Below, in pieces: positions 1,383-64,000 of a DNA stretch of 64,000 nt. How positions within the stretch are numbered: the stretch's first letter is position 1; each line of letters opens with the position of its first letter. The translations under genes and the position numbers were made by a program. This stretch comes from an uncultured Acidimicrobiales bacterium (GTDB lineage Bacteria > Actinomycetota > Acidimicrobiia > Acidimicrobiales > SHLQ01), in assembly GCA_964562985.1 (NCBI GenBank), contig CAZLWE010000002.1, positions 1,630 through 65,629 of the forward strand, read 5' to 3'. The notes under the pieces were generated by a model, which was not told where the DNA came from, did no database searches, and worked only from the letters and a program-made list of their open reading frames with translations.

Positions 1383-1985
1383 TTAACCTAGCCAGGCGCT
1401 CAAGCGCCTGAAGCTAAATAGGCGGCCGAGGGCTACTGCGACGGTTTCGCGGGCTCGTCTAGAGAAGCTCGTATCGTCGCTGGAGGCGACAACCTCGGCA
1501 TCGAGGCCGACCTCGGCGGCAATCTCTGCGCTTCGTCGAGCGTGGTACGCATCGGTCACAATCACGACCGTCTCTTCGGTATCTGCCAGCTGGTTTCTGG
1601 CTGCAAGCAGAGACTCGTAGGTGTCTCCCCCATCGGTGACGACCACAATCTCCTCTTCGGCGACACCTTGATTGCGAAGGTAGGTAAAGGCTGCGAAGCC
1701 TTCCGTGAACGTGTCACCAGGCTGATTCGCTCCCGTTGTCACGATGCGATCTGCCGCTCCCTCATTCCACAGCGAGAACGCGGTATCGAGACGCTGCTCC
1801 AGCACCGGCGAAGGCTCCCCGTTGTACTGCGCAGCGCCGAGCACCACGATCGCATCGCCGGTTGCCGCTGTGGCCTGGGCGTCATTGCCGGCGGAGGTCA
1901 CCTGAACAAAGACCACACCGAGCCACACCACGAGGAATCCAGCGAACAAGAGCGTCCCCCAACCAAGGACGCGACGAAGAATCAT
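1383..1985 (-). CDS. DUF218 / YdcF (SanA/ElyC-like) membrane-anchored protein
   Basis: N-terminal TM helix followed by DAIVVLGAAQYNGEPSPVLEQRLDTA..IVTTG, typical of the DUF218 family. Confidence 0.7.
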   Translation of the reverse strand: MILRRVLGWGTLLFAGFLVVWLGVVFVQVTSAGNDAQATAATGDAIVVLGAAQYNGEPSPVLEQRLDTAFSLWNEGAADRIVTTGANQPGDTFTEGFAAFTYLRNQGVAEEEIVVVTDGGDTYESLLAARNQLADTEETVVIVTDAYHARRSAEIAAEVGLDAEVVASSDDTSFSRRARETVAVALGRLFSFRRLSAWLG

Positions 1986-2059
1986 GGTCTGTATCCGGTC
2001 GCTTTGGGCGCCCGCACCCCGGCTTGACCTCGCGGCTTCACAACCACCATGCTACGCCC

Positions 2060-2704
2060 ATGCCCGCTTCCAATCTCGACGCCAAGCGAACCTTTGATGT
2101 CTCGGACCTCGACATGATCAGCTCTTACAAGCTCAGTACCGGGCTGATCGTGCCTCGTCCGATCGGTTGGATCGGCACAATTTCTGCCGACGGCGTACGC
2201 AACCTCGCGCCGTTCTCGTTCTTCAACGTTGTTGCCATGCACCCGCCAACATTCGTGATCGCTCCGGTCACCGCAGGCGGACGCAAAGACACGCTCAACA
2301 ACATCGAGGAGACCGGCGTCTTCACCGTCAACGTCGTGACAGAAGAGACGGTCGAGCCAATGAACGCAACCGCAGCGGCACTGCCACCCGAGGTGGACGA
2401 ATTTACCCACGTAGGGCTTACCCCCGTCACCTCCGAGACGTGTGCCGCCCCAATGGTGGGCGAAGCGGTGGCAAACTTTGAATGCACGCTCTCGCAAATG
2501 ATCCCGGTCGGCACCCCGACCGAAGATCAGGCAGGGCTTGGCATGTTGATCATCGGCGAGGCCACCCGGATTCATATCGCCGAACGGGTCGTCTCCGATG
2601 ACCTCCGCATCGACCAGCAGGAGCTTCGGGCGGTGGGTCGACACGTGGGCAACGCCTACTGCATGACCGCAGGGTCGCTCTTCGACATCGACAGGCCTGA
2701 ATAA
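2060..2704 (+). CDS. Flavin reductase-like FMN-binding (split-barrel) protein
   Basis: VPRPIGWIGTISADGVRNLAPFSFFN motif. Start moved to the ATG at 2060, because the upstream part of ORF 1736.. is Arg/Pro-rich off-frame text overlapping the DUF218 gene. Confidence 0.8.
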   Translation: MPASNLDAKRTFDVSDLDMISSYKLSTGLIVPRPIGWIGTISADGVRNLAPFSFFNVVAMHPPTFVIAPVTAGGRKDTLNNIEETGVFTVNVVTEETVEPMNATAAALPPEVDEFTHVGLTPVTSETCAAPMVGEAVANFECTLSQMIPVGTPTEDQAGLGMLIIGEATRIHIAERVVSDDLRIDQQELRAVGRHVGNAYCMTAGSLFDIDRPE

Positions 2705-2721
2705 CCCGCTACGGTCGCCGC

Positions 2722-3534
2722 CTATGGCAGCACTTGCTCATCAACGTCGACACCGTCGAAGAGCAACACCGCCGTCGTGGGCCCCTCGGGGACTCCCTCT
2801 ACCCGCACGCTAGCAATCGCTGAGGAACCACTGGGAATCTCTTGATGGATGAAGCGGACCAAGGCTGGAATTCGCTCGCCGTCCGCGTCCTGAACCTCGA
2901 TTGTGAATCCTTCGGTTGACACGACCGGCTCATCACTGGCATTCGAGATTCGGATAGCAAATGACCGAGTGCCCTGATTTATCGGGTCTATGTCATATAC
3001 CGACAATCCAATGTTCCCGGCCAACGGCGACGAAGCCGTCGGGACTTGCTCTGTTGGCTCGGGCGCCGGGGGATCGCTCGACCCGACCGGCTCATCGGTG
3101 GAGTCCGCTGCGGTCACATCTTCGACCTCTACCGCCGGGGCGACATCGGTGCCATCGTCGACTACCGCGTCGTTCTCTTCGACCGCGCCAGCCACCTCGG
3201 CCTGGACCTCGACATCGGCTATTGGCCCTGATCCGACAAACACCGTCCAGGCAGCAAAGCCAATGAGGGCCAGACCGACCAGGACCATGGTGGTCAACAC
3301 GACAAGCGTTCTCGACGTGCCCGATTGTACGTTCTCACGCGGCTGCTCCGGAACCGCAAGGCTGGCCGGACGGACGCTTAGTCGATCGGGCTGAGTGCGA
3401 AGGGGATCTCGTCGTCGACGATGATCATGGCTGCGTGCGCTGTTCCTGCCGTGGCGCGCGACTACTTTCGCTAGTAGCGCTTCGCCCTCCTCGGTGAGAA
3501 CGGGAGCAACAGGATCCTTATCTTCGTCGTTCAC
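2722..3534 (-). CDS. Hypothetical single-pass membrane protein
   Basis: Basic N-terminus, one TM (LVVLTTMVLVGLALIGFAAWTVFV), an acidic linker and a C-terminal beta-rich domain. No family recognised. Confidence 0.5.
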   Translation of the reverse strand: MNDEDKDPVAPVLTEEGEALLAKVVARHGRNSARSHDHRRRRDPLRTQPDRLSVRPASLAVPEQPRENVQSGTSRTLVVLTTMVLVGLALIGFAAWTVFVGSGPIADVEVQAEVAGAVEENDAVVDDGTDVAPAVEVEDVTAADSTDEPVGSSDPPAPEPTEQVPTASSPLAGNIGLSVYDIDPINQGTRSFAIRISNASDEPVVSTEGFTIEVQDADGERIPALVRFIHQEIPSGSSAIASVRVEGVPEGPTTAVLLFDGVDVDEQVLP

Positions 3535-3617
3535 AGTTGCACGCCCCTAACACTCGACGCCTCACAAAAATACCACCTGAGGCACAACTAGTGCAATAGC
3601 GCGCTACTCAGGGTGGC

Positions 3618-5030
3618 CTACCCGTCGGTAAGGAAGCGCAACAGCTTCTGGAAACGAGCGACCACCACGTCGCGCTCGAGCGTTGTCACCGCATCCCAAA
3701 TCGGTATCCCAGCGGTGGATCCGGTGATGGCCGCGCGAGCCGGAACTTGCGAGCGTGCGCCGAGTTCGTTCCCGACCTCGCCTACCGCTTCGTTCATCGC
3801 CTCAGCAGTCCACTCAACGCTGTCGAAACGCTCGATGAGGGCAGTGAGTATTTCGGGAACGAGCTTGCCTTTGCGAATCCCTTTGGTCCAGCCCTTGTTC
3901 TCGTTGTCGAACTCCACCTCGTCGGTGAATAGCCACCCGATGAAACGCGGGATATCGGCGAACTTCTCGACCCGCTGCTGCACCTCGCCAGCCACCATCG
4001 CAAATACCTCGGGGCGATAGGCACCATTTTCCCACGAAACCTCGGTGTCGAGACCGTAAACGAACGGCTCAGCTTTGTCGATGAAGTCCTCCACCGGGAG
4101 CGCTCGAATGTACTCACCGTTGATGTGATTGAGCTTCGTCACGTCAAAGAAGGCCGAGCCCTTGTTCACGTTCTCCAGCTTGAACAGCTCAATGATCTCC
4201 GTAATAGGGCGAATCTCGACATCGTCGGGCGGGCCCCAACCCAGCAAGGCCAGATGATTCACCATGGCCTCTGGGAGATAGCCCTGACGCAAGAAGTCCA
4301 TCAGCGACACATCATCTCGTCGCTTGGACAGCTTCTTTCGCTTGTCGTTTACAAGCAATGGCAGGTGGGCGTACGTGGGCTTGTCACCGAAATTCAGCGC
4401 ATCCCAAATCAACATGACCTTTGGAGTGGTGTTCAGAAGATCCTCTCCGCGAATGACGTGGGTGATACTCATGTCTGCGTCATCAACTGCATTCGCGACG
4501 AGGAAGGTCGGGGTTCCGTCGCTTCGGCGCACGACGAAGTCTTCGAGATCCGCGCATGAAAAGGTCACCTCACCGCGAATCACGTCCTCGATGACGATCT
4601 GCCCCTCGTCGGGAGTACGAAAGCGGACCACACAATCTGGGCCGTCGGAGAGTCCCTTATCTCGAGACCATCCGTGATACCCCGATGGAAGTCCCGCCTC
4701 CTTGGCAAGTTCGTCGGACTGCTCTCGAGTGAGGTTGCAGAAATAGGCGTGGCCGGATTCGACGAGCTGCTCAACAGCGTCGACGTGGAGTCGTTGGCGT
4801 TGAGATTGATAGTAGGGCCCCTCATCCCAGTCGATTCCGAGCGTTTGCAACGGCTTCACGATGGCATCGATGTACTCGGGCTTGCGTAGCGCCGCGTCGG
4901 TATCCTCAATTCGCAGGATCATCTCGCCACCGGTGGAACGGGCGTAGAGCCAGTTGAATAGAGCTGAACGTGCCGATCCGACGTGCAGGAAGCCGGTTGG
5001 GGCTGGCGCAAAGCGCACTCGTGTATTCAC
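3618..5030 (-). CDS. gltX: Glutamate--tRNA ligase
   Basis: RVRFAPAPTGFLHVGSARSALFNWLYAR (HIGH-type motif) and KLSKRR (KMSKS-type motif), 470 aa. Confidence 0.95.
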   Translation of the reverse strand: MNTRVRFAPAPTGFLHVGSARSALFNWLYARSTGGEMILRIEDTDAALRKPEYIDAIVKPLQTLGIDWDEGPYYQSQRQRLHVDAVEQLVESGHAYFCNLTREQSDELAKEAGLPSGYHGWSRDKGLSDGPDCVVRFRTPDEGQIVIEDVIRGEVTFSCADLEDFVVRRSDGTPTFLVANAVDDADMSITHVIRGEDLLNTTPKVMLIWDALNFGDKPTYAHLPLLVNDKRKKLSKRRDDVSLMDFLRQGYLPEAMVNHLALLGWGPPDDVEIRPITEIIELFKLENVNKGSAFFDVTKLNHINGEYIRALPVEDFIDKAEPFVYGLDTEVSWENGAYRPEVFAMVAGEVQQRVEKFADIPRFIGWLFTDEVEFDNENKGWTKGIRKGKLVPEILTALIERFDSVEWTAEAMNEAVGEVGNELGARSQVPARAAITGSTAGIPIWDAVTTLERDVVVARFQKLLRFLTDG

Positions 5031-5056
5031 GATGGCACAGGCTAGCGACCGTGAGC

Positions 5057-5578
5057 CTAGAACCGGAGTTGATCTCGCCAGTCTGCGCGATAGCGCGTCG
5101 CGACCTCGTCAGGCGTTTGCTTCAGAACCTCAGCGCTGACCATGTCTGCGATAGCACGTCGTTCGAAGTAATGGAAGGAGTAGTGGACCTCCGCGAACGC
5201 CTCTTTGCGGAACTTCACCAGCTCTGGATCGGCTCCCTCATCGAGGAACCCGAACAGGGTGTAGGCAATACGCAGGTCATGCACAACGGGTGCCCGATGG
5301 AACTGCGACGCCCGCTTGAGAGCCACGCCTACGCAGCCAGCGTCGACGTCACCTCGGTATTCGCCATCGGTGAGGATGAGCTTGGTATCGAACAGTGGAG
5401 TCAACGTGAGGACGAAGCCCTGATCGGGCCCTTGGGCGCCGAGACGTCCACCATCACCGGCGGGAGTACCGAAGGTCTCTCCCGGTCGATTCGCAGCGCC
5501 CTTGCCCGCGCGTTGCGGCGGCGAAGAGTAGTGGCGTTTTGTTGTGGGAGCTGCGGGAACGAATTCAGGTGCGGCCAT
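5057..5578 (-). CDS. Hypothetical protein
   Basis: 173-aa ORF with coding-like composition in its C-terminal two thirds. No family recognised. Confidence 0.45.
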   Translation of the reverse strand: MAAPEFVPAAPTTKRHYSSPPQRAGKGAANRPGETFGTPAGDGGRLGAQGPDQGFVLTLTPLFDTKLILTDGEYRGDVDAGCVGVALKRASQFHRAPVVHDLRIAYTLFGFLDEGADPELVKFRKEAFAEVHYSFHYFERRAIADMVSAEVLKQTPDEVATRYRADWRDQLRF

Positions 5579-5587
5579 GGCTTTAGC

Positions 5588-6163
5588 CTAGGCCGCGGAC
5601 TGCCCGAGATCTGCGCTGTTTGAAATTCCGATGCGTGCGATGATCGGCTGACGACTCGACGACCGGCGATCTCTGCGAAGCGTCGCACGCTCCAGAAATT
5701 CGACAGCAGCGGTGAGTTCGAGTCCGAAGATTTCCGCGAGGTCCATGGCCAGCTGCTCGTCCTCGGTATCCAACATGGAGAAGATGATGTCGGCTTCCTG
5801 GTCACGCATGTACACAAGGCCGTTGTCGGGCAGATGTCGCATGCGACGAATACTCTTCGCGACAACATCGAGCATCTCACGGTTGGTTGGCGATGTGAGT
5901 CCCTCGAAGCAATTGAGCCAGCTGAGCACCACGTTCCAACCCGCCTCGGGCACGTTGGCCTGGCAGTCATCGGAGTACAGGCTTGCGAGCTTGCGAAGCA
6001 AAACGGCATCGGGCCCGACCTTGTCGGCCTCAATGCCAAGTAAATGAGTAATCGACTGCCCGGTCACCCGAGAGACTTCACCCAGTGTGATATCCGACGC
6101 TTCGCGCCATTCGCGCAATGCGCCACCGAGGGTCTCTCCCGTGCGGGGATCTTCGTACACCAT
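5588..6163 (-). CDS. XRE-family helix-turn-helix regulator
   Basis: N-terminal LREWREASDITLGEVSRVTGQSITHLLGIEADK HTH-like segment. Confidence 0.6.
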   Translation of the reverse strand: MVYEDPRTGETLGGALREWREASDITLGEVSRVTGQSITHLLGIEADKVGPDAVLLRKLASLYSDDCQANVPEAGWNVVLSWLNCFEGLTSPTNREMLDVVAKSIRRMRHLPDNGLVYMRDQEADIIFSMLDTEDEQLAMDLAEIFGLELTAAVEFLERATLRRDRRSSSRQPIIARIGISNSADLGQSAA

Positions 6164-55547: not shown

Positions 55548-56409
55548 CGGTCACCGTCGTCGACTCGCCGGGTGCCGACTCGATGCCCAATGCGGCGTTC
55601 GTGTGGGTCGCGAGACGTTTGATAAGCGAGTAACCAATACCCCGAGCTTGGGAGTTCGACCAATCGTGGAACGTCGGGTCGAGCAGCGGTCCCACGTCGT
55701 CGATCCCGGGGCCGGCATCGACCACCGAGAACACCACACCGTCGTCTGCGTCGTCGGCAGCGATCTTCAAGAGGCCTGGCTGACCGTGCTTGATCGCATT
55801 GCCGATCAGCTCATCGAGGATCGTATCGAGGTCCGATCGGTGCCCGAGCGCAGAGTCGTCGCCAGCGCATCGGTACTCGCTAGCGAGCAATAGGCCCGCC
55901 CGCAGCGCACGGTGCTTCCATCGCTCGCCCGCGCGCGTTAGGACGTCCATGACGTCGATCGCGCCAACCTCGGTCGAGTGCGGTTCCTCCAGCTCAAGAA
56001 ACAAGAGCAGTCGGGTCATGATGACTTCGAGGTCGCGCGCCGAGGCCAAACCATCTTCGAGCCAAGCGCGCATCTGTTCAGACTTTGCGTTGGCACCAGC
56101 CGTCTCCATCACCCCGAGCACGCCGTTAAGCGGTGAGCGGGTCTCTCGCGAGAGGAGGCGAAGGAATTCGGCGCGCTCAGCGGCCGATAGTGCTGCCTTC
56201 GTCCGTTCCTGCTCGAGTTCTTCGGTGCGTTGCGCGACGCGATCGTCGAGTTCTTGGTTGACAAGGAACAGCCGGCGCATGCCGTCCTCGGCGATGCGTT
56301 CGGCTTCTTCGCGCGCCGAGCGCTCACGTGCTACCCGTCGCTCCAGGCGCGCGACCCTTTTCTCAAGGTCGGCCCGCTCTAGGTCGGACAGTTCCAGCTC
56401 AGGCGACAT
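55525..56409 (-). CDS. Histidine-kinase-like protein lacking the phospho-acceptor His (coiled coil + degenerate HisKA + HATPase_c)
   Basis: The H-box reads AEFLRLLSRETRSPLNGVLG, with Arg where the SHE(L/I)RTPLN His is expected. N-box ELIGNAIKHG, G1 VDAGPGID and G2 GIGYSL are intact. No TM or sensor domain. Confidence 0.75.
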   Translation of the reverse strand: MSPELELSDLERADLEKRVARLERRVARERSAREEAERIAEDGMRRLFLVNQELDDRVAQRTEELEQERTKAALSAAERAEFLRLLSRETRSPLNGVLGVMETAGANAKSEQMRAWLEDGLASARDLEVIMTRLLLFLELEEPHSTEVGAIDVMDVLTRAGERWKHRALRAGLLLASEYRCAGDDSALGHRSDLDTILDELIGNAIKHGQPGLLKIAADDADDGVVFSVVDAGPGIDDVGPLLDPTFHDWSNSQARGIGYSLIKRLATHTNAALGIESAPGESTTVTVTLPFAP

Positions 56410-56950
56410 CGCGTTGCGCTACGACCTCGCGCCGGACGGCGATCACTGATTCAGTGCCTTCACCGCTGAGCACCTCGATCGTCACTGGCTCGTTGTAGTG
56501 GTCACCCGCACCGAGGATGAGCCCTTCGGCCAGTGGGGACAGTCCCCGTTCGGACCGGTAGGTCAGGTGTAGTTCGTCGTCGCTGATTCGCTCGGGGATC
56601 ACGTCTGGTGGCTTGGCGTTCGGATCGAGCTTCTTGACTTCCACATGGATGATGCTGTGGATCGATTCCAGGAACGCGAGCACATCGAGGTCGGGGTCGA
56701 GGAAGTCCGACATCGACGCGACGAGATGCGGCAGGGCCTGTCGTCCGACGAGGCGTTGCACGTCGGCCGGGTCGTGGCCGGTCTTGCTAGCCGCAACCGA
56801 CACCAGGGCGAGGAGGTCTTCGTCCGGATAGGTCCCGAGGGCGGTGTAGCCACCGTTGAGGCCGGCGTCGTCGAGCAGGTCGTCCCAGGCGTCCTCACCA
56901 AGTAGCTCAGTGACGGCCTTCTCGGTGACGTTAAAGATGATGCCTTTCAT
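56399..56950 (-). CDS. H-NOX (haem nitric oxide/oxygen-binding) sensor protein
   Basis: MKGIIFNV..LLGEDAWDDLL N-terminus, candidate proximal His in LESIHSIIHVEVKK, KPP Pro, and the Y-x-S-x-R motif (LTYRSERG). ATGA overlap with the upstream kinase gene. Confidence 0.8.
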   Translation of the reverse strand: MKGIIFNVTEKAVTELLGEDAWDDLLDDAGLNGGYTALGTYPDEDLLALVSVAASKTGHDPADVQRLVGRQALPHLVASMSDFLDPDLDVLAFLESIHSIIHVEVKKLDPNAKPPDVIPERISDDELHLTYRSERGLSPLAEGLILGAGDHYNEPVTIEVLSGEGTESVIAVRREVVAQRDVA

Positions 56951-58428
56951 GCGGCCATCCCCGTTTCTAGTCGTTGTTGTAGTTGGGCTTCCACGTGAGA
57001 AATCTCCCCTACCAAGCGAGCCCGAAGGGCATCGCTTGGATGATCTGTCTTTTCGTATTCGGCGCACAGGCGGGCAAGCCGCTCGGCGCCGATCAGGGCG
57101 CTCGTCGACTTGAGGGTGTGTGCGGCCCGGCGCGCCTCTTCACCGGTGTCAGCCTCATTACCCACGAGGAGTTCGGTACGGGATCCCAACTCGGCAAGGT
57201 AGGTCTCGATCACGACCCGCACCGTGTCGGCGTCGCCGAGATCCTCAACCAGGGCTTCGATGGCCTCGTGCATCGTGTCGGTGCTGTCGGCCTGACGTTG
57301 CGTGGCGTCGAAGCTTTGATCGGTGGTGTCGTCGTGACCTAACCAACGCGTCATCATGGCGCGCATGTCGTCGAGGCTGACCGGTTTCCCAAGGTGGTCG
57401 TTCATACCGGCATCGAGGCATGCGAGACGATCTCCTGCCAATACGTTGGCGGTCATAGCGATGATCGGAACGTCGGGTGGCACGAGCTCTTGCGCACGAA
57501 TCTCTTGGGTGGTCTCGATACCGTTTGCGCCCGGCAGGTTCCAGTCCATCAAGATCAGGTCGACAGATTCGGATGTGAGGAATTCGAGCGCTCGCTCGCC
57601 GCTGTCGACGGCCACAGCACCGAGGCCGAGTAGCTCGAGTTGTTTGAGCGCGAGGGTGCGGTTGATCTCGGAGTCTTCTACGACGAGCACCGTTCCCGAC
57701 GCGGTACCGGTTGGGGCGATTCGTTCGACGTCTTTGCTTTCGGCTGCTGCACATGGAATCGAGAAAACAAAAGTGCTACCCACACCGACCGTGCTATCGG
57801 CCGAGATCGTGCCGTCCATCGCATCGGCGATCCGCCGCACAATGGCCAAACCAAGGCCGGTCCCTTGCACACCTGCGTTTCCGACCCGAACAAACGGTTC
57901 GAAGATGACCTCCAGGTCATCGGGCTCGATGCCGACACCGCTGTCTCGCACCTGCACCGAGAGGTTCGTGGCGTCGGAGGCCAAGGTGACCTGAACCGAG
58001 CCGATCTGGGTATAGCGGATGGCGTTGCTGATGAGGTTGTGGACGACCTGGCCGAAACGGACGGAGTCGCCCATGACCCGCAAGGGCACATCGGAGGAGA
58101 AGTCGACCAGCAAGCGAAGACCCGCTTCCTTGGCATCGGGACGCAGTCGATCGGCGATGGAGGTCACCAAGGTGCGCGGAGCGAAAGGTTCGTTTTCGAG
58201 GCTCGGGGTGGTGGAACTGAACTCGCCGTAGGTGATGACATCATCCACGAGCACTCGCATCGAGGCGGCCTCGTCGTACAGGGTTTGTGCGATCCGGTGG
58301 TTGGCATCGTCGAGGTCGCTGTTGAGCAAGAGTTCGGACAGCCCGAGAAAGGCGTGCAGCGGCCCGCGCAGTTCGTGGCTGACCGCAGCCATGAACCGTT
58401 CATCGCTTGATGTGGATCGCTTCGTCAT
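56947..58428 (-). CDS. Sensor-less hybrid histidine kinase (HisKA-HATPase-REC-Hpt)
   Basis: Starts almost directly at the H-box (FMAAVSHELRGPL). N/G1/F/G2 boxes present. REC domain (VLVVEDSE..LILMDWNLPG..GKP). Hpt domain (AAHTLKSTSALIGA). Confidence 0.85.
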   Translation of the reverse strand: MTKRSTSSDERFMAAVSHELRGPLHAFLGLSELLLNSDLDDANHRIAQTLYDEAASMRVLVDDVITYGEFSSTTPSLENEPFAPRTLVTSIADRLRPDAKEAGLRLLVDFSSDVPLRVMGDSVRFGQVVHNLISNAIRYTQIGSVQVTLASDATNLSVQVRDSGVGIEPDDLEVIFEPFVRVGNAGVQGTGLGLAIVRRIADAMDGTISADSTVGVGSTFVFSIPCAAAESKDVERIAPTGTASGTVLVVEDSEINRTLALKQLELLGLGAVAVDSGERALEFLTSESVDLILMDWNLPGANGIETTQEIRAQELVPPDVPIIAMTANVLAGDRLACLDAGMNDHLGKPVSLDDMRAMMTRWLGHDDTTDQSFDATQRQADSTDTMHEAIEALVEDLGDADTVRVVIETYLAELGSRTELLVGNEADTGEEARRAAHTLKSTSALIGAERLARLCAEYEKTDHPSDALRARLVGEISHVEAQLQQRLETGMAA

Positions 58429-59726
58429 CGTCGGGAACCTCCAGTGACCAATCGGCGGCCACCGCCATTTCGTTGAGTAGCACGATTGCCAACCACGACG
58501 ACGCCCCATGTGGTGAGTACGAGCAACCCGACCACCACCGTGCGTGCGACGACGAAGGACTCAAGCGATGCCGACCTCGTGGCGAGGACCACCCCGAGGA
58601 CGACCACTCCTCCAAGGAGCAGAGTTGCCGGTCGGGCGTCGCCATCGACCGACGACACCATTGCGGCCCCGGCGACTACGGCGATCAGCCCCGTTCCCAA
58701 GGCATACGGGCCGACGAGGTAGGCCAGGTCGGCGAACTCGGTGCCGTAGGTGATCCCAACCCAGACATCGGCGGTCAACCAGGCGCCGGTCACGAGGATG
58801 GCGACTAAGACGAGATTTCCGGCGGTGAATATGCGTCGACGGAGCACTGGTGTCAGTGGCGCGTCTTCGGCGGTCACGAACGGAAGGACCGCTTGTTGGA
58901 TGGTCCACGACCCGAAGAACACGATCCGCCCGGCCAGCGTGAGTGCAGCGAACCCTCCGGCGGTCGCCGGATCGAAGGCAGCTTTGGCAATGATGAGATC
59001 GAGATTCGTCAGCGCGGTGACAGCGATGAGACCAGCACCGACGGAACGAAGCGGCGGGTGCCCGGCGGGTGAGGACAGGTCACACCACGACCAGCGGCCG
59101 AGATGCGGTCGGCAAACGACGTAGCTGGCAAGAAAGCCGATGTTGAGCGCGATCGTCAACCCGAGAAGCCCCTTGAAGAGGACGACGACCACCGCCGTGG
59201 CCGCAGCGCGAGCAATGCCTTCCGCTAGCAGAGCGGTGGTGAGCTTTGCGAAAGCCATTTCGCCGTGGAGCCGGCCCCGCTCGACGGCGAGTTGAAGGTG
59301 CACGGGAAGACCGAACGCCATGACGAGAAGCGCCCAGGGGCTCTCGATGTTCAGCGCGCCGGCGAGTTGTGGTGCAGCCAGACCGAGCAACAGCGCACCA
59401 CCCAAGCCGATCCGGTTGGTGAGCAATCGCATTGCTGCTACGTCGCTCGCAGAATCTCGAGCCGGGTTCAACACCGCTACCGAGGTCGTGAGTTGCAGTA
59501 CGCAGGCCAGCACGCCAATGACGAGCAGCAGGGTCACCATGAGCGAGATATCGCCGAAGGTTTCAGGCGATAGCACCGACGCGAGCCAGATGTTGATGCC
59601 AAAGTTCACTGCATTGACGACCATCATCGCCGCCACCAATGTTGCGCTTCCGCCACCGAGCTTCTTGAGCGACGAGGTCCGGTCGTTGGTGACTTGCGTG
59701 GCTGCCTTTCTTCTCATAGCGATCAT
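58425..59726 (-). CDS. Wzx/MOP-family polysaccharide flippase-like membrane protein
   Basis: About 12 TM helices. Start set at ATG 59726 (ATGA overlap with the upstream STAS gene). The longer ORF N-terminus is Arg-rich off-frame text. Confidence 0.7.
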   Translation of the reverse strand: MIAMRRKAATQVTNDRTSSLKKLGGGSATLVAAMMVVNAVNFGINIWLASVLSPETFGDISLMVTLLLVIGVLACVLQLTTSVAVLNPARDSASDVAAMRLLTNRIGLGGALLLGLAAPQLAGALNIESPWALLVMAFGLPVHLQLAVERGRLHGEMAFAKLTTALLAEGIARAAATAVVVVLFKGLLGLTIALNIGFLASYVVCRPHLGRWSWCDLSSPAGHPPLRSVGAGLIAVTALTNLDLIIAKAAFDPATAGGFAALTLAGRIVFFGSWTIQQAVLPFVTAEDAPLTPVLRRRIFTAGNLVLVAILVTGAWLTADVWVGITYGTEFADLAYLVGPYALGTGLIAVVAGAAMVSSVDGDARPATLLLGGVVVLGVVLATRSASLESFVVARTVVVGLLVLTTWGVVVVGNRATQRNGGGRRLVTGGSRR

Positions 59727-60007
59727 GGCCGCATCGTCCCGACGATTCCTACAGTGCTCAGCAGATGCTGGGCTTGACTGTTTGGATCCACGACGACCTT
59801 CACGTCGCCGTATCGAGCGCGAGCCAGTGTTCGTGCTTTGACGAGCACGTTCACCACGCCGAGGTGCGCCGAGGCAACGTCGACGAAGCGAACCTCTACT
59901 TGCGGTCGGGGCTTGTCGAGCAGTTCGGTGAGGGCGACCTCGATCTCGTCCAGGCGGCCGGGACCAATGTCTCCGGTGAGGGTCAGCGTGTCGTGTGCGG
60001 AGCTCAT
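59723..60007 (-). CDS. STAS-domain protein (anti-sigma-factor-antagonist-like)
   Basis: 94 aa. The L.L.G.I pattern plus length and predicted fold resemble SpoIIAA/RsbV. ATGA overlaps on both sides. Confidence 0.5.
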   Translation of the reverse strand: MSSAHDTLTLTGDIGPGRLDEIEVALTELLDKPRPQVEVRFVDVASAHLGVVNVLVKARTLARARYGDVKVVVDPNSQAQHLLSTVGIVGTMRP

Positions 60008-60351
60008 TGGGCACCTCCGGTGAATACCGGAATCAATGAGTCGAAGCCCGTGAGTTCGAGCGTGGCGCGAAGTTCGTCGCTGGGTAGCGCGATGACAAGG
60101 TCACCGTCGCGGCCGAGCGCCGTGAGCCGGGCATCGACCAACGACTGAAGCGAGGACATGTCAGCGAAAGCAACGTTCGAGCCGTCGATCAAAAGCGTGG
60201 TCCCTGCTTCGCTGAACATGGCCTGCACGTCGAGATCTGCGTGAACGTCGAACCGCTGCGGCAACTCGATCGTGCGGGCGACGCGAGTCTGGTGCAGGGC
60301 GACCGGTGGTGCAGTGGCGCTGAAGTGTTGTTGGTTGGAGGAGAGGTTCAT
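60004..60351 (-). CDS. STAS-domain protein (anti-sigma-factor-antagonist-like)
   Basis: LLIDGSNVAFADMSSLQSLVDA..LVIALPSDELRATLELTGFDSLIPVF matches the STAS pattern, including a DxSS-like Ser. Confidence 0.6.
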   Translation of the reverse strand: MNLSSNQQHFSATAPPVALHQTRVARTIELPQRFDVHADLDVQAMFSEAGTTLLIDGSNVAFADMSSLQSLVDARLTALGRDGDLVIALPSDELRATLELTGFDSLIPVFTGGAQ

Positions 60352-60392
60352 GGCTGGGGTCTTTCTGATCGGTGGGTCTTGGAAACGAGTGG

Positions 60393-62321
60393 TTAGGCGC
60401 AGGCTTCGAGGAGGTGGTGGTGATGCCAGGCAGCGATATCGGCGAGCGGCAGACTGTTCGCCGCTGCGTGGTTGGTGGATGCCTGTTGGTCGCGCAGCTC
60501 GTCGTCGGAGAGAATCTGCTCGATCGCCGCTCGTAGAGATTCCATCGAGGACGGGTCGAATGGGAGCCCCACGAAACCTTCTTCTTCGATGAGGCCGATG
60601 AAGTCGCCAAGCTCAGGCACGACCACCGGGCGTCCGAACGCACCGGCCTGGTGCAGCGGACCGGAACTGCCGGTCGTGGAGGTATAGGGGAACACCACGA
60701 CCGAGCTCGATTCGAACAGCGGCTCGACATCCTCTTCTTCGATGTAGCCAAGGAAGCGAAGGCCCGCGAGATCGTCGTTGGTGGCAGCGACGGCGTCGAG
60801 GTAACCGGGGGCGTTGGGGCTGTCGGTTCCGCCGATGACGAGTTCGACATCGGCGAACGCTGGGTCGTTGGTGAGTTGGCGGTAGGCGTCGATCAGGTTC
60901 TCGAGGCGTTTGTAGGTGCCGAACTTTCCGAACGCCAGGATGCGGCGACCGCCATCGACAGGGTCGCAGCCGTTGTAGTGCGTGGTGTCGAATGTGCCGT
61001 GTGGGGTGAGGAACACATTGTCGGCGCCGTAGGTGTGGTGGAGGATTTCGACGTAGTTGGGCATCGTGGTGACGACACGGTTCGCCCGAAGCACGATCTT
61101 GGTGAGTGCGGTGCCGATGCCTCGGAGCACTCGCTCGATGATGGAGCTGCTCCCGAAGCCGGCAGCATCGAGGTCGACGGTGTCGACCAGGTTGTGCAGG
61201 AGCACCACAGAGGGCACGCCAGCGCAACGGGCAAGCATCGGAGTGAACAGCCCAAGTGCGGCGGGCACCTTCTTATTACCGAAGGCGGTGAAGTGGATGT
61301 TGAAGAGCACTGCGTCGGGGCGTTCCCGACGCAGTGCCCGGACGAGGCGCACGGCGTTGGTGAGGTCATTGAACTTCCAGCTCTCGACTCCACGAACTCC
61401 GGGTGGGGTTTGCGCCTCGCCATCCTCATGGAATGCGATGACCTCCTCGACGCCGTCGAGGGTGGCGAGGTGACGGGTGAGGTGGAAGCCGTATTCGTTG
61501 AGGGTGGTGTCTGATGGAGGCAGCGCGGTGACGACGCCAAACCGGGTCGGGCGTCCGGCACGTTCGGTGGCCTTGTTCGGGCGAGCGAACCGGAGCTTGG
61601 CGAGTTGCAGCACGAATGAGCCCGCGTCACGAAGGGGCCGCACGGTCGAGCCAGGGGCGTCGAACCAGGTGACCGGCACTTCGACTACCTCGTAGCCGAG
61701 ATGGTTGGCGAGCCACAGCGCTTCGAGATCGAAGCTGAAGTCAGCACTCTTGAGCGAGGTGAAAATGTCTTCGGCGGCGTCGCGCTCAAACAGTTTGAAG
61801 CCGCATTGGGTGTCGCAAATTTCCGAACCCAGCACCCACTTGACCAGAACCCGGAGAACACCACTGCAGGTGCGGCGGATCGCCGAGCGGTTCTGCTCGG
61901 TGGCCTCGGCATGTGCCCGACTCCCGATCACGACCGGGGTGCCGCGGCGAGCCTCGGCGAGCATGGTGTCGACATGCGCGATTGGGGTGGAGAGGTCGGC
62001 GTCGGTGACGAGGACGTACCGGCCCGCTGCGGCGAGCACGCCGGCCTTGACCGCTGCACCCTTACCTCGGTTCACGCCGGGGTCGAGCACCCGGACGTTG
62101 CGCAGCCCGAGCAGGCGAACCATCGCCACCGTGCCGTCGGTCGAGCCGTCGTCGGACACGACGATCTCGAAACTCTCCCCGGCTCGGGCGAGGTGGGCGG
62201 CGGTGGCAGCGATCGTCGGGACGATGCGCTGCGCCTCGTTGAACGCAGGGATGACCACACTGATTTCTGGCGTGTCAGCGACCGGCTCGCTCTTCCAAAG
62301 GGTGAAGTTCTCGTAGCTCAT
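60393..62321 (-). CDS. Bifunctional glycosyltransferase (N-terminal GT2, C-terminal GT4/GT1)
   Basis: GT2: VVIPAFNEAQRI..VVSDDGSTDGT..VTDADL. GT4-like: GKFGTYKRLENL..FLGYIEEEDVEPLF..GSSGPLHQAGAFGRPVVVP. Confidence 0.8.
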   Translation of the reverse strand: MSYENFTLWKSEPVADTPEISVVIPAFNEAQRIVPTIAATAAHLARAGESFEIVVSDDGSTDGTVAMVRLLGLRNVRVLDPGVNRGKGAAVKAGVLAAAGRYVLVTDADLSTPIAHVDTMLAEARRGTPVVIGSRAHAEATEQNRSAIRRTCSGVLRVLVKWVLGSEICDTQCGFKLFERDAAEDIFTSLKSADFSFDLEALWLANHLGYEVVEVPVTWFDAPGSTVRPLRDAGSFVLQLAKLRFARPNKATERAGRPTRFGVVTALPPSDTTLNEYGFHLTRHLATLDGVEEVIAFHEDGEAQTPPGVRGVESWKFNDLTNAVRLVRALRRERPDAVLFNIHFTAFGNKKVPAALGLFTPMLARCAGVPSVVLLHNLVDTVDLDAAGFGSSSIIERVLRGIGTALTKIVLRANRVVTTMPNYVEILHHTYGADNVFLTPHGTFDTTHYNGCDPVDGGRRILAFGKFGTYKRLENLIDAYRQLTNDPAFADVELVIGGTDSPNAPGYLDAVAATNDDLAGLRFLGYIEEEDVEPLFESSSVVVFPYTSTTGSSGPLHQAGAFGRPVVVPELGDFIGLIEEEGFVGLPFDPSSMESLRAAIEQILSDDELRDQQASTNHAAANSLPLADIAAWHHHHLLEACA

Positions 62322-62419
62322 ACCCAGGTCTCGGGTCTGAACATCAAGGTGACCGGTGCGCTACCTCAAGATCAGGTCAAGGTCGCCGAGCTGTCTAAGC
62401 CGCTGCTACAAGCAGTCGC

Positions 62420-63976
62420 CTAGGCGTTGAAGACCTTGTCAACGGTGTGGTCGAAGGCGTTCGACGTCCCTATGTTCGGTTCCGATCCAACCGCCGCTGG
62501 CCCATAGGTATCAGCAGCCCTTCCGATAGCGCGACTAATTCTCCGAAAGCTGGGAATCGCAAGTGATGGACTATGACCCGAAGAGCTGCGGAACCGTGCC
62601 GTAACTAGTTTGTCAATCGACAAGTGATGGGGCGTAGGAAAGCTCACCACTCGCGACTCTAGGAGCTTCCTTCGCTTGTGTAGCGCCGAATGAATGGTCT
62701 GCAACAACCACCCATCAAGCTCAGAAAGGTAGTCGCCATCATCAATCAACGGATACGCCGAGAGAGCCCCTCGGAAATGCCTGAGCTTTATCTCGCCGCG
62801 CTGAAAAGATCTCACCTGCTTTTCATTCAAATCACCATAGAGGTAGCGACGAAGCTGACTTAGAAGACGGACGTAGTCCTTGTCGACGTTCGCTGCGATG
62901 CGGTCGAGGTTCTGACAGCCGCGCATGGGTTCGCGCAGAAGGTGGTCGTAGATCATTCCTGCGCAATCACTCTGTATCTTTTTGCGCGCCCTCTTGCTGG
63001 GCTTGCAGGACCCTAGTCCGAGGTCGTAACCCAAAAATTGAACTACTCGTTTTGTTCGAATCTCACCGTTCGGCCAGTTGGCGGGAACCAGCAAACTGAT
63101 CCCATCGGACTTGGCCTGGTTCAGACTGACACCCATTCTCGAAGCTGCTTCATTGAGAACGTTGAACGCTTGACAAACCAAATCGTAAGAGTCTGACCAA
63201 ATCAGGGTGTCATCGGCATACCTAACGAACTGAAGGCCGAGCCGCTCAAGGTTTCTATCCAATTCACTGGCAGCAAGGTTCGCGAGGATGAGACTTACGC
63301 TTGTGCCCTGCGGAATCCCCCTTCTGTTATCCAATGGCTTGCCGGGATAGTCACTGGCGAGTGCGGGCTTGAGGGGCATAAATGCTCGGAGCACATCAAG
63401 CTCGTGTCTAGACAAGAACATGGTTCTCTCGTCCAGGACGCGTTCAATGTGATCATGCGAGATCGAGTCGAAGAACGCTGAGAAATCGAATTCAGCGATG
63501 AACACCCGCTGCTTTTCGCTCCATGCATTCTTCACTGTTAAGACAGCATCTTGGGCGCTCAAGTCCCTTCTATACGCATAGGAGCTGCCGCTCATCCTGC
63601 TCGAATTCTTAGCGAGTACGCTCTCAAAGACCATTTTCGAGACCGCACTGTCGGCGACCTGAAATATGGAGACAGTTCGGAAAGTTCCATCGCCCTTTGG
63701 CACCGATTGGAGCACCGGGGGACGAGGCGCATAGCTACCTGCCTGTAAGGACTTCCAGATCGAATCGCCGATCGCAGCGGCGTTCTTCTTCGCGTGATAG
63801 GGGTCGAACCCCGAGTCGACGGCCCACCATGACGGATCGTGCGATTCGAGCGACTCTAAGTCTTTCGTAGAGCGCTCTTGCCTAGCTTTTGACTCCAAAC
63901 GCGCCCCCATTATCCTGCCCTCATGTCGGCGAATAAGGCGGTTTGCCTCCCGGATGATGTGGTCTTCGATCTTCAT
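62420..63976 (-). CDS. Reverse transcriptase, orphan/unclassified, possibly UG/Abi-like defence-type
   Basis: RT motifs present: VPKGDGTFRTVSI, FDFSAFFDSISH, RGIPQGTSVSLILANL, RYADDTLIW (YADD at 63209-63220), SLNQAKS, VQFLGYDL. About 200-aa helical C-terminal extension. G+C is visibly lower than the flanks. Confidence 0.85.
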   Translation of the reverse strand: MKIEDHIIREANRLIRRHEGRIMGARLESKARQERSTKDLESLESHDPSWWAVDSGFDPYHAKKNAAAIGDSIWKSLQAGSYAPRPPVLQSVPKGDGTFRTVSIFQVADSAVSKMVFESVLAKNSSRMSGSSYAYRRDLSAQDAVLTVKNAWSEKQRVFIAEFDFSAFFDSISHDHIERVLDERTMFLSRHELDVLRAFMPLKPALASDYPGKPLDNRRGIPQGTSVSLILANLAASELDRNLERLGLQFVRYADDTLIWSDSYDLVCQAFNVLNEAASRMGVSLNQAKSDGISLLVPANWPNGEIRTKRVVQFLGYDLGLGSCKPSKRARKKIQSDCAGMIYDHLLREPMRGCQNLDRIAANVDKDYVRLLSQLRRYLYGDLNEKQVRSFQRGEIKLRHFRGALSAYPLIDDGDYLSELDGWLLQTIHSALHKRRKLLESRVVSFPTPHHLSIDKLVTARFRSSSGHSPSLAIPSFRRISRAIGRAADTYGPAAVGSEPNIGTSNAFDHTVDKVFNA

Positions 63977-64000
63977 GGTTATTGGTGTGGGTGGTGGCGT

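Follow-up and report, generated by a model that had tools for sequence, protein, structure and literature searches.

The DRT9 antiphage systems of Salmonella enterica (SenDRT9) and Escherichia coli (EcDRT9) form a hexameric complex of reverse transcriptase (RT) and noncoding RNA (ncRNA), make poly-dA that is covalently linked to the RT, and act by phage-triggered abortive infection (PMC12483538, PMC12489045). Known phage inputs are a phage ribonucleotide reductase, which raises the dNTP supply, and proteins that shield the 3' ends of DNA (PMC12483538, PMC12489045). Structures are available for the Salmonella and E. coli systems (PDB 9nlv, 9nlx, 9ioa, 9iob, 9vku, 9vma; Tang et al., Nature 2025, PMC12483538; EMBO J 2025, PMC12489045). 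The priming tyrosines of the C-terminal tail, from which DNA synthesis starts, were regarded as conserved and essential in both mechanistic studies (PMC12483538, PMC12489045); in the E. coli enzyme they are Y496 and Y498, on the priming loop (PMC12489045).

Two other class 2 UG RTs invite comparison. DRT10 (UG17, Eco3DRT10) also has an upstream ncRNA and is protein-primed from a conserved C-terminal residue, which is a serine in one enzyme and a tyrosine in another (PMC12632851). Unlike the system described here, it belongs to a separate RT family and requires a SLATT effector gene. Its A-B-A' template yields tandem repeats, in contrast to the homopolymer expected here from a U tract. DRT2 (UG2) likewise copies a structured upstream ncRNA repeatedly, but it acts as a monomer, uses the ncRNA 3' end as its primer and assembles a gene (neo) through rolling-circle copying.

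Family assignment and genomic context

The gene under study lies at the edge of a 64,000-nucleotide stretch of contig CAZLWE010000002.1, which we call the window. The original prediction, made from the letters of the sequence, had placed a 518-aa RT at 62420-63976, and these coordinates proved exact. The features of the locus in the window are as follows.

62322..62419, minus strand: 98-nt spacer from the RT stop codon to a glycosyltransferase gene, no Rfam match
62420..63976, minus strand: intact DRT9 (UG28) RT gene, open reading frame of 518 aa with ATG start
62423..62554, minus strand: C-terminal tail from the conserved PSF motif (P475) to the end, PSFRRISRAIGRAADTYGPAAVGSEPNIGTSNAFDHTVDKVFNA, counterpart of the DRT9 priming loop
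62462..62464, minus strand: TCG codon of Ser505, the proposed priming residue, located by its offset from the PSF motif
63209..63220, minus strand: catalytic YADD codons TAT GCC GAT GAC, residues 253-256, read from the sequence
63977..63986, minus strand: 10-nt spacer from the ncRNA hairpin to the RT start codon, without Shine-Dalgarno sequence and without U-run
63987..64000, minus strand: final 14 nt (ACGCCACCACCCAC) of the terminal ncRNA hairpin's 3' arm, located by alignment to contig L081; the remaining ncRNA is outside the window

All RT motifs that had been quoted are present in the translation: VPKGDGTFRTVSI, FDFSAFFDSI (from residue 163), GIPQGTSVSLILANL (with PQGTS from residue 222), RYADDTLIW, SLNQAKS and FLGYDL. 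The YxDD box and the other RT motifs are intact, and D164, Y253, D255 and D256 are invariant in our family alignment A1. Pfam RVT_1 matched residues 92-318 with 89 bits (E 3.4e-25), far above chance given the cutoff of 29.6 bits.

By sequence and fold the enzyme is unambiguously a member of the DRT9 (UG28) family. The PADLOC Drt9 profile matched with 545 bits (E 4e-164), aligning residues 2-498 to profile positions 4-481 of 488, whereas the second-best family reached E 1.5e-31. A phmmer search of the PDB returned DRT9 chains at E 1.4e-90 over residues 3-488, and the identity to E. coli DRT9 is 35% over residues 1-492. An AlphaFold2 model (pLDDT 84, pTM 0.79) was superimposed on 9vma_A with a TM-score of 0.86/0.90 and an rmsd of 2.9 Å over 500 columns, and on 9nlv with 0.83/0.87 and about 3 Å; the closest non-DRT9 structure gave 0.55. 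The match to the solved DRT9 RT takes in both its helices at the N-terminus and its helical C-terminal domain. The family has 165 representatives at E<=1e-30 in a 50%-identity library, and the RT is accompanied by an upstream ncRNA, so the initial labels 'orphan' and 'unassigned class' have to be dropped. No record identical to the 518-aa protein turned up in an exact look-up. A scan of GTDB representative genomes yielded mostly group II intron RTs, retrieved through the YADD-region pattern, and two DRT9-like loci with 31-32% identity.

The chance that the enzyme is a group II intron, retron or DGR RT with its RNA or accessory gene beyond the window is negligible. There is a weak cross-family likeness of the RT domain to TIGR04416 (127.6 bits) and to the retron St85 profile (56.7 bits), but these scores are far under the respective cutoffs of 300 and 235 bits, and retron Ec67 scored 24.1 bits against 450. 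Pfam found RVT_1 alone, with neither a maturase (X) nor an endonuclease domain, and the fold similarity to group II RTs was TM 0.51-0.55 as compared to 0.80-0.86 for DRT9. Whether run on 61000-64000, on the whole window or on positions 1-1800 of the related metagenome contig L081, which include 1.67 kb beyond the window edge, Rfam scans gave no match to a group II intron, a retron or any other RNA. The original view of a defense-type UG/Abi RT, and not an enzyme of a group II intron, retron or DGR, thus held up, with Drt9 as the PADLOC assignment and the intron and retron profiles below cutoff. From its candidate list (AbiK/Abi-P2/DRT2/DRT9-like), DRT9 stood and DRT2 did not: NF041746 (NCBIfam Drt2) scored 50.8 bits against a cutoff of 390, and comparison of the fold with 9c0i gave a TM-score of 0.41. 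DRT10 was rejected as well, with PADLOC RT_UG17 at E 4.4e-22 versus 4e-164 for Drt9 and no adjacent SLATT gene found.

The composition of the region sets the gene apart. In 500-nt windows the G+C content was 0.518-0.556 over 62250-64000 versus 0.61-0.68 over 56000-62250, confirming the suspected lower G+C relative to the flanking genes. On contig L081 the low-G+C stretch runs on upstream of the RT, and it ends sharply at the RT stop codon. Since G+C reaches the host level in the 98-nt spacer, this spacer is the edge of the low-G+C islet, and the location of the DRT9 system in such an islet suggests horizontal acquisition. The 24 nt 5' of the ATG within the window (ACGCCACCACCCACACCAATAACC-ATG) contain no Shine-Dalgarno sequence, as had been noted before, and a strict scan for sigma-70 promoters and terminators upstream of the RT gave no site.

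Neighborhoods of homologues contain type I restriction-modification, UvrD/DEAD helicase, GmrSD, HEPN, PIN and Mrr genes. The upstream open reading frames at L081 50-1327 and L082 9182-9703 had no Pfam or PADLOC match, SLATT included, and the SLATT family was absent from the neighboring genes of eight other loci of the clade described below. No partner protein gene is conserved beside the system. The locus thereby resembles Salmonella and E. coli DRT9, in which the one protein gene does not depend on a partner. RT family, fold and YxDD box are shared with them as well, and so is the position of the ncRNA directly upstream on the same strand. The host lineage is different, being of high G+C here with Acidimicrobiia MAGs as the named relatives.

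The upstream ncRNA

The possibility of a partner ncRNA 5' of the gene, past position 64000, had been raised, and such an RNA is present on contig L081. This metagenome contig is 99% identical to the window and is not the same molecule: L081 1671-5645 corresponds to window 64000-59999 at 99.1% identity, and the contig adds 1670 nt past 64000. The RT gene of L081 is frameshifted by a 4-nt duplication. In addition, the neighboring gene on this contig has lost 31 nt by a deletion, which suggests assembly or strain noise.

The predicted ncRNA of ~185 nt extends from about L081 1503 to 1687 (window-equivalent 64168 to 63984) on the same strand and directly 5' of the RT. Its parts on L081 are a −10 box (TAGAGT, inferred from conservation across loci), a 5' stem-loop with a CAAGAG loop, and a long-range closing helix around internal stem-loops. 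The putative template loop, CAGCUUUUCCCCUAUCCGGA / CAGCUUUUCCCC / CUUUUCCCC, is single-stranded; it contains a U4 tract (L081 1623-1626) that lies ~120 nt downstream of the inferred 5' end and stays unpaired in the predicted fold. A terminal GC-rich palindromic hairpin of 32 nt (L081 1653-1684; 16+16 nt, 100% complementary) ends 10 nt 5' of the ATG.

Several results argue for a conserved RNA structure. The fold of the L081 RNA had a z-score of −6.5 relative to shuffled sequences. In nine clade loci the three shared helices, with 24 pairs, had 94.8% of the cells paired versus 35-53% with slid partners; compensatory changes occurred at 17 of the 24 pairs, and none of 500 shuffles equaled the observed values. 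The terminal hairpin was both conserved and covarying in these nine loci. Covariance model R2, which was built on these loci with the three modeled helices, also located the RNA directly 5' of the RT in two loci outside its building set, namely L132 (38 bits, E 3.5e-11) and L133 (E 3e-4). It gave weaker matches in L083 and L112. The signature CAAGRG-N77-107-TTTTCC-N2-9-CSGG was present in 21 loci, with a single occurrence per locus and always on the RT strand; wherever the RT start had been tabulated, it preceded the RT directly. It was not found in 80 loci of other RTs, and the chance expectation is 0.03 per 64 kb.

The RNA can be related to that of E. coli DRT9 by its predicted plan, which has in common a 5' stem-loop, a closing helix, a looped U4 ~120 nt from the 5' end and a hairpin before the ATG. 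The E. coli and Salmonella ncRNA sequences are too diverged from it for significant alignment. The E. coli DRT9 locus was not matched by R2, and the case for homology to the experimentally studied RNA thus draws on position, architecture and the U-tract loop. Covariance model R1, derived from 28 upstream regions of RTs with a tyrosine tail, did not detect the L081 RNA; it contained only 4 consensus pairs because the MAFFT alignment was too heterogeneous. Profiles made with nhmmer from the 5' and 3' segments of the R1 alignment found nothing significant, with the true U-tract site in L125 at E 7.5.

Two elements differ from Salmonella and E. coli DRT9. The template loop reads UUUUCCCC...CCGGA here versus ACUUUUAC there, and the 3' hairpin lacks a U-run and has the clade-specific sequence GUGGUGG/CCACCAC. 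This sequence-conserved hairpin may have co-evolved as a component of the complex. The RTs of the tyrosine-tailed sister group (P0034 and P0035, at L132 and L133; 48-49% identity) have an ncRNA that is matched by R2, with the CAAGAG stem-loop and a CAGCUUUUCCCUUUCCGGAAAU template loop, but their 3' hairpin sequence differs and their tail ends in PYGY with tyrosines.

The template loop also bears on the nature of the product. In the nine loci UUCCC is invariant whereas the U's upstream of it vary (UUGUUCCCC in L128, AUUUCCCC in L130), and in two clade members the U tract is shortened, to UUGUU and AUUU; in SenDRT9 the loss of a single U abolished defense. Because the invariant core of the template is UUCCC and not a long U run, a short G/A-containing repeat could be made instead of a pure homopolymer, as by DRT10, which combines short template repeats with a C-terminal serine primer. 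We consider such a changed product improbable. The UUUUCC(C)...CCGGA loop is common to the tyrosine-type sisters and many other tyrosine-type loci, so it did not change along with the tail. Furthermore the U4 is intact at the window-related locus L081, PADLOC assigns the RT to Drt9 and not to UG17, and there is no nearby SLATT gene.

The C-terminal tail and its serine clade

The tail of E. coli and Salmonella DRT9 ends in ...NYDYE; counted from the PSF motif, Y496 and Y498 of the E. coli enzyme have offsets 29 and 31. In the window RT the tyrosine offsets are occupied by T504-S505-N506, within a conserved G-x-S-N-P motif, and there is no tyrosine after residue 491. The motif is shared by a clade made up of the query and the 31 full-length clusters nearest to it. 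A serine is found at offset 30 in 31 of the 32 members and at offset 29 in the remaining one, which has a 1-residue deletion; in P0014 the tail reads TDASNP. Among 82 more distant, tyrosine-type homologues a tyrosine occurs at the priming position in 81, at offset 29 in 66 sequences and at offset 30 in 49. The serine clade was monophyletic in 60 out of 60 bootstraps of a phylogeny from which the tail columns had been left out. When the clade alignment was used to scan metagenomes, all loci retrieved were of the tyrosine type (36-46% identity).

Judged from these sequences, the serine-for-tyrosine tail is a new feature within the known DRT9 system. The clade may well represent a natural serine-primed form of DRT9, in which a C-terminal serine (Ser505 here) would take the place of the tyrosines while the template loop is as in the tyrosine-type sisters. 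The same interchange of Ser and Tyr as found in DRT10 would then apply to this clade.

Templated poly-dA synthesis by a DRT9 enzyme could also start elsewhere: at Thr504, at Tyr491, at another tyrosine brought to the active site within the oligomer, at an RNA 3'- or 2'-OH, or de novo. Thr504 adjoins Ser505 and shares its offset with the first tyrosine of the E. coli tail, Tyr491 is within the tail, and DRT2 provides a precedent for priming from the ncRNA 3' end (PMC12632851). The tail is disordered in the AlphaFold2 model, with pLDDT <50 for residues 499-518, indicating that it is flexible without RNA. We nevertheless find a primer other than Ser505 rather unlikely. Across the clade, residue 504 varies among L, V, A, T and P and residue 491 among H, Y and F, so a hydroxyl is conserved at neither site. 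Only 6 of the 32 members have any tyrosine past offset 17, which leaves the serine as the sole conserved hydroxyl in that region, and two members terminate exactly at this serine.

The loss of the priming tyrosines, the missing Shine-Dalgarno sequence and the frameshift in the near-identical L081 copy might be taken as signs of a decaying, non-functional DRT9 remnant. This is very unlikely. The window copy has a full-length open frame with all RT motifs and the invariant residues of the family, the ncRNA helices covary, and the 31-nt deletion in the gene next to the L081 RT points to assembly or strain noise. Tyrosine loss is common to the whole 32-member clade, and the conservation of G-x-S-N-P across it indicates selection.

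Proposed mechanism and implications

Taken as a whole, the locus probably encodes a two-part DRT9 antiphage system, RT plus ~185-nt ncRNA, that would carry out templated, protein-primed poly-dA synthesis from Ser505 leading to abortive infection. By analogy to the Salmonella and E. coli systems, the RT and ncRNA would assemble into an oligomer (PMC12483538, PMC12489045). The priming hydroxyl would be that of Ser505 in the G-x-S-N-P motif, at the place of the tyrosines, as suggested by its position and conservation. As in the studied enzymes, the RT may copy the short uridine tract repeatedly to give long poly-dA that is held covalently on the enzyme, and the same product as in the tyrosine-type sisters is expected since the template loop is unchanged. 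Poly-dA would be kept low in uninfected cells and, again by analogy, would accumulate upon phage infection and cause abortive infection.

There is no Rfam family for the ncRNA, and the present alignment and covariance model can therefore be used for locus annotation. The results extend the range of DRT9 from the studied Enterobacteria to high-G+C Actinomycetota-type genomes. DRT9 is among the few polymerases known to produce a DNA homopolymer from an RNA template off a protein primer, and a well-supported branch in which RT core, ncRNA plan and uridine template are retained while a conserved serine stands in for the tyrosines offers a direct test of the requirements for the primer residue. If the proposed role of Ser505 is correct, this would be the first serine-primed homopolymer-synthesizing RT and, after DRT10, the second and independent Tyr-to-Ser switch in class 2 UG RTs. 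The Ser/Tyr interchange of DRT10 would then be a general property of class 2 UG enzymes.

Family assignment and gene neighbourhood of the reverse transcriptase

The reverse transcriptase (RT) gene has the position, strand and length given in the original prediction, and all motifs quoted there were found in its translation: FDFSAFFDSI from residue 163, GIPQGTS with PQGTS from 222, and RYADDTLIW with YADD at 253-256. Pfam RVT_1 covered residues 92-318 (E 3.4e-25). The PADLOC Drt9 profile matched residues 2-498 over profile positions 4-481 of 488 (E 4e-164, 545 bits), and the second-best PADLOC families scored 1.5e-31 or weaker. The best PDB match was the DRT9 RT (9ioa, 9iob, 9nlv, 9nlx, 9vku, 9vma; E 1.4e-90, residues 3-488), and BLASTP gave 35% identity between residues 1-492 and E. 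coli DRT9 from NZ_CP039298.1. An AlphaFold2 model built with 33 homologues (mean pLDDT 84, pTM 0.79) superimposed on the cryo-EM DRT9 chains with TM scores of 0.86/0.90 (9vma) and 0.83/0.87 (9nlv) at an rmsd of about 3 Å, whereas group II intron RTs reached only 0.51-0.55 and DRT2 0.41. On the basis of these profile, structure, BLASTP and fold matches, membership of the DRT9 (UG28) family is virtually certain. The labels 'orphan' and 'unassigned class' had to be dropped in view of the Drt9 match and of the 165 family representatives found at E<=1e-30 in a 50%-identity library.

Every NCBIfam model stayed far under its cutoff. The families rejected in this way were group II intron RT (127.6 against 300), Drt3a (60.3 against 200), retron St85 (56.7 against 235) and Drt2 (50.8 against 390).

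Genes at the locus (L081 is a metagenome contig extending past the window edge)
62420-63976, minus strand: RT, ATG start, 518 aa, an ORF at the predicted coordinates
60393-62321, same strand: glycosyltransferase, 642 aa, GT2/GT4/GT1 (Pfam)
60004-60351, same strand: short ORF; its L081 copy matches Pfam STAS
59723-60007, same strand: short ORF (ORF call)
56947-58509, same strand: 520-aa ORF, read as a hybrid histidine kinase/receiver/HPt protein from its translation alone
L081 50-1327, same strand, beyond the window edge and upstream of the ncRNA: 425-aa ORF (ORF call)

The lower G+C content noted earlier was borne out by computation (0.52-0.56 over 62250-64000 versus 0.61-0.68 in the genes downstream), as was the lack of a Shine-Dalgarno sequence in the 24 nt preceding the ATG. 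The low-G+C stretch covers the RT and its upstream region, and at the RT stop codon the value jumps to 0.65-0.72. All four ORFs of 56947-62321 have host-like G+C, including the Pfam-checked fused glycosyltransferase immediately downstream, which is host-like in composition. No partner gene is conserved beside the RT in L081, the homologous locus L082 and the other loci of its clade, and in L081 and L082 the ORFs lying upstream matched no Pfam or PADLOC family, SLATT included. The N-terminal half of the 425-aa ORF is hydrophobic and probably membrane-spanning. Since this ORF was not found beside other clade members, it probably lies outside the DRT9 system. Genes around the homologues include restriction-modification, helicase, GmrSD, HEPN, PIN and Mrr genes.

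A serine in place of the priming tyrosines

In characterised DRT9 enzymes two conserved tyrosines of the C-terminal tail, Y496 and Y498, serve as primers, and the DNA ends up covalently bound to the RT (PMC12483538, PMC12489045). In the E. coli tail, PSFLLIHKALQKGLQESGIEKIMNPQSLNYDYE, two tyrosines stand at offsets 29 and 31 from the proline of the PSF motif. A tyrosine after offset 17 is present in 81 of 82 homologues at 42-49% identity (P0034-P0120), chiefly at offset 29 (in 66 sequences) and offset 30 (in 49). The tail studied here reads PSFRRISRAIGRAADTYGPAAVGSEPNIGTSNAFDHTVDKVFNA; its offsets 29-31 are taken by T504, S505 and N506, and tyrosine is absent beyond residue 491.

This serine pattern is common to the 31 closest full-length clusters (P0002-P0033 minus the C-terminally truncated P0029; 48-63% identity), for which the consensus is ...[HYF]G-A-G-A-V-G-x-D-P-x-x-G-[LVAT]-S-N-P. 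With our protein counted, serine occupies offset 30 in 31 of 32 sequences, a one-residue deletion placing it at 29 in the remaining one. Only 6 of the 32 carry any tyrosine further on in the tail, and two proteins terminate exactly at the conserved serine. In a neighbour-joining tree of 92 sequences, computed with the tail columns excluded, the 32 formed one clade in 60/60 bootstraps, with the tyrosine-tail pair P0034/P0035 (...PYGY) as sister group. The sole source name retrieved among clade members was Acidimicrobiia bacterium (MAGs). Among the full-length 50%-identity representatives inspected, the tail tyrosine was missing only in P0014, which represents the clade, in P0142 (F-S-F) and in the distant P0246. 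Judged by sequence, the clade fails one feature treated as conserved in characterised DRT9 enzymes.

The tail of P0142, a library representative of the DRT9 family, ends in ...NRKSFSFNSS and may reflect a second, independent loss of the tyrosines.

The upstream RNA

In a DRT9 system the RT is accompanied by an ncRNA whose gene directly precedes it; this RNA contains conserved stem-loops as well as a uridine tract (U123-126 or U124-127) that is universally conserved and is the template for kilobase-long poly-dA (PMC12483538, PMC12489045). The complete protein had no exact entry in the protein collection searched, and no GTDB representative genome matched as its source. A 370-aa fragment, 100% identical to our RT, led to L081, a 5645-nt JGI metagenome contig. 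Because its positions 1671-5645 correspond to window 64000-59999 (99.1% identity), L081 prolongs the locus by 1670 nt past the window edge; window positions equal 65671 minus the L081 position. A 367-nt spacer separates the unrelated 425-aa ORF from the RT start at 1695.

L081 carries a 4-nt tandem duplication (AGCA) at about 2162 (window about 63510), which frameshifts the RT, and a 31-nt deletion in the glycosyltransferase gene relative to window 60923-60953. These are either strain variants or assembly errors; if the former, the RT would be a pseudogene in that population.

RNA elements in L081 and their window equivalents
1491-1496 (64180-64175): -10 box TAGAGT
1510-1515 (outside the window): CAAGAG loop
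1623-1626 (64048-64045): U4 of CAGCUUUUCCCCUAUCCGGA
1653-1684 (64018-63987): 32-nt perfect palindrome GTGGGTGGTGGCGTGC/GCACGCCACCACCCAC

Given the position of the palindrome, the window holds just the final 14 nt of the hairpin 3' arm (63987-64000). The comparison took in eight further loci from the nearest homologues (L082, L124-L130) and some 40 loci of more remote DRT9 members. Upstream of every RT a common plan was found: first a TAnnnT -10 box, then a short stem with a CAAGAG-type loop at its tip, followed by a variable stretch, a loop (C/A)UUUUCC(C)...CCGG(A) and, in most loci, a GC-rich hairpin directly ahead of the start codon. The 185 nt of L081 1503-1687 folded at -93.5 kcal/mol (z-score -6.5 versus dinucleotide shuffles). 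In the predicted structure a 5' stem-loop comes first, then a long-range helix formed by GGAGUAGCAAG and UUUUGCGCUUC, which encloses the unpaired U-tract loop together with three internal stem-loops, and finally the terminal hairpin.

In the nine-locus alignment RNAalifold predicted 24 pairs in three helices. The helices had 94.8% of cells paired versus 35-53% with partners slid by 1-3 columns, 17 pairs were changed on both sides, and 0/500 shuffles reached any observed measure. The covariance model built on this alignment matched two unseen loci, L132 (3790-3975, 38.4 bits, E 3.5e-11) and L133 (456-638, E 3e-4), in each case immediately before the RT gene of a tyrosine-type sister-group member, and weaker matches were correctly placed in L083 (E 1e-3) and L112 (E 0.05). 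The composite signature CAAGRG-N77-107-TTTTCC-N2-9-CSGG (chance expectation 0.03 per 64 kb) occurred once per locus in 21 of 130 fetched loci, always on the RT strand and, in all loci with a tabulated RT start, shortly before a DRT9 RT; none of the 80 other-RT loci contained it. Rfam scans of the window and the L081 upstream region returned no family for this RNA. An ncRNA directly upstream of the RT is highly probable. The original prediction, which considered a defence-type RT whose partner RNA might lie past the window edge, proved right on this point.

The experimentally studied E. coli ncRNA (L131 2139-1958, minus strand) is predicted to share this plan, with a 5' stem-loop, a closing helix, a looped ACUUUUAC and, a short distance ahead of the ATG, the end of a 3' hairpin. 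The covariance model does not detect it, as the two RNAs have diverged too far in sequence. The tyrosine-type sister loci have the same template loop as the serine-tail clade, CAGCUUUUCCCUUUCCGGAAAU, so the RNA template was unaltered when the tail switched. The pre-ATG hairpin is conserved in sequence within the clade (GUG(U/G)GGUGG...CCACC(A/C)CAC with a GUGCAC-like centre; compared in L081 1653-1684, equivalent to window 63987-64018, and in L082, L124, L125, L127 and L129) and lacks a terminator U-run. The hairpins at that place in the tyrosine-type sister loci and in E. coli are unrelated in sequence. This pattern suggests a clade-specific role, for example in contacting protein, in processing or in the control of translation.

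The uridine tract is shortened in two clade members, L128 at about 3393-3401 (UUGUUCCCC) and L130 at about 1006-1013 (AUUUCCCC); the invariant core of the clade's template loop is UUCCC, not U4. In L126, at 4999-5033, the GTG start chosen by the gene caller falls within the hairpin of the ncRNA, which places the actual start of the RT further downstream. The E. coli RefSeq CDS (L131 452-2050, 532 aa) likewise begins within the ncRNA; the solved protein has 499 aa.

Proposed mechanism

The published DRT9 RT-ncRNA complex is a hexamer. Exonuclease I holds poly-dA down in uninfected cells, and the phage ribonucleotide reductase NrdAB and the 3'-end binder T5 gp58 lead to its build-up and to abortive infection (PMC12483538, PMC12489045). 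For the present locus, computation showed the family membership, the RNA with its helices and U tract, and the replacement of tyrosine by serine. By homology, RT and ncRNA would assemble into an oligomer and the U tract would be copied repeatedly into protein-attached poly-dA, which would accumulate upon phage infection and cause abortive infection. We favour poly-dA as the product, with reasonable confidence.

In the serine-tail branch Ser505 would supply the priming hydroxyl, being the sole conserved hydroxyl of the tail and located at the tyrosine position. DRT10, a sister family, offers a precedent: Eco3DRT10 uses the C-terminal Ser456 as its primer and Eco1DRT10 uses Tyr444 (PMC12632851); our judgement on priming from Ser505 is evenly balanced. 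As the pre-ATG hairpin has no U-run, ncRNA and RT mRNA may form one transcript in this branch.

The RT studied here is a genuine gene that clearly belongs to the DRT9 lineage. The DRT9 system was already known, and its mechanism appeared in print in 2025; the novelty lies in a monophyletic serine-tail branch of DRT9.
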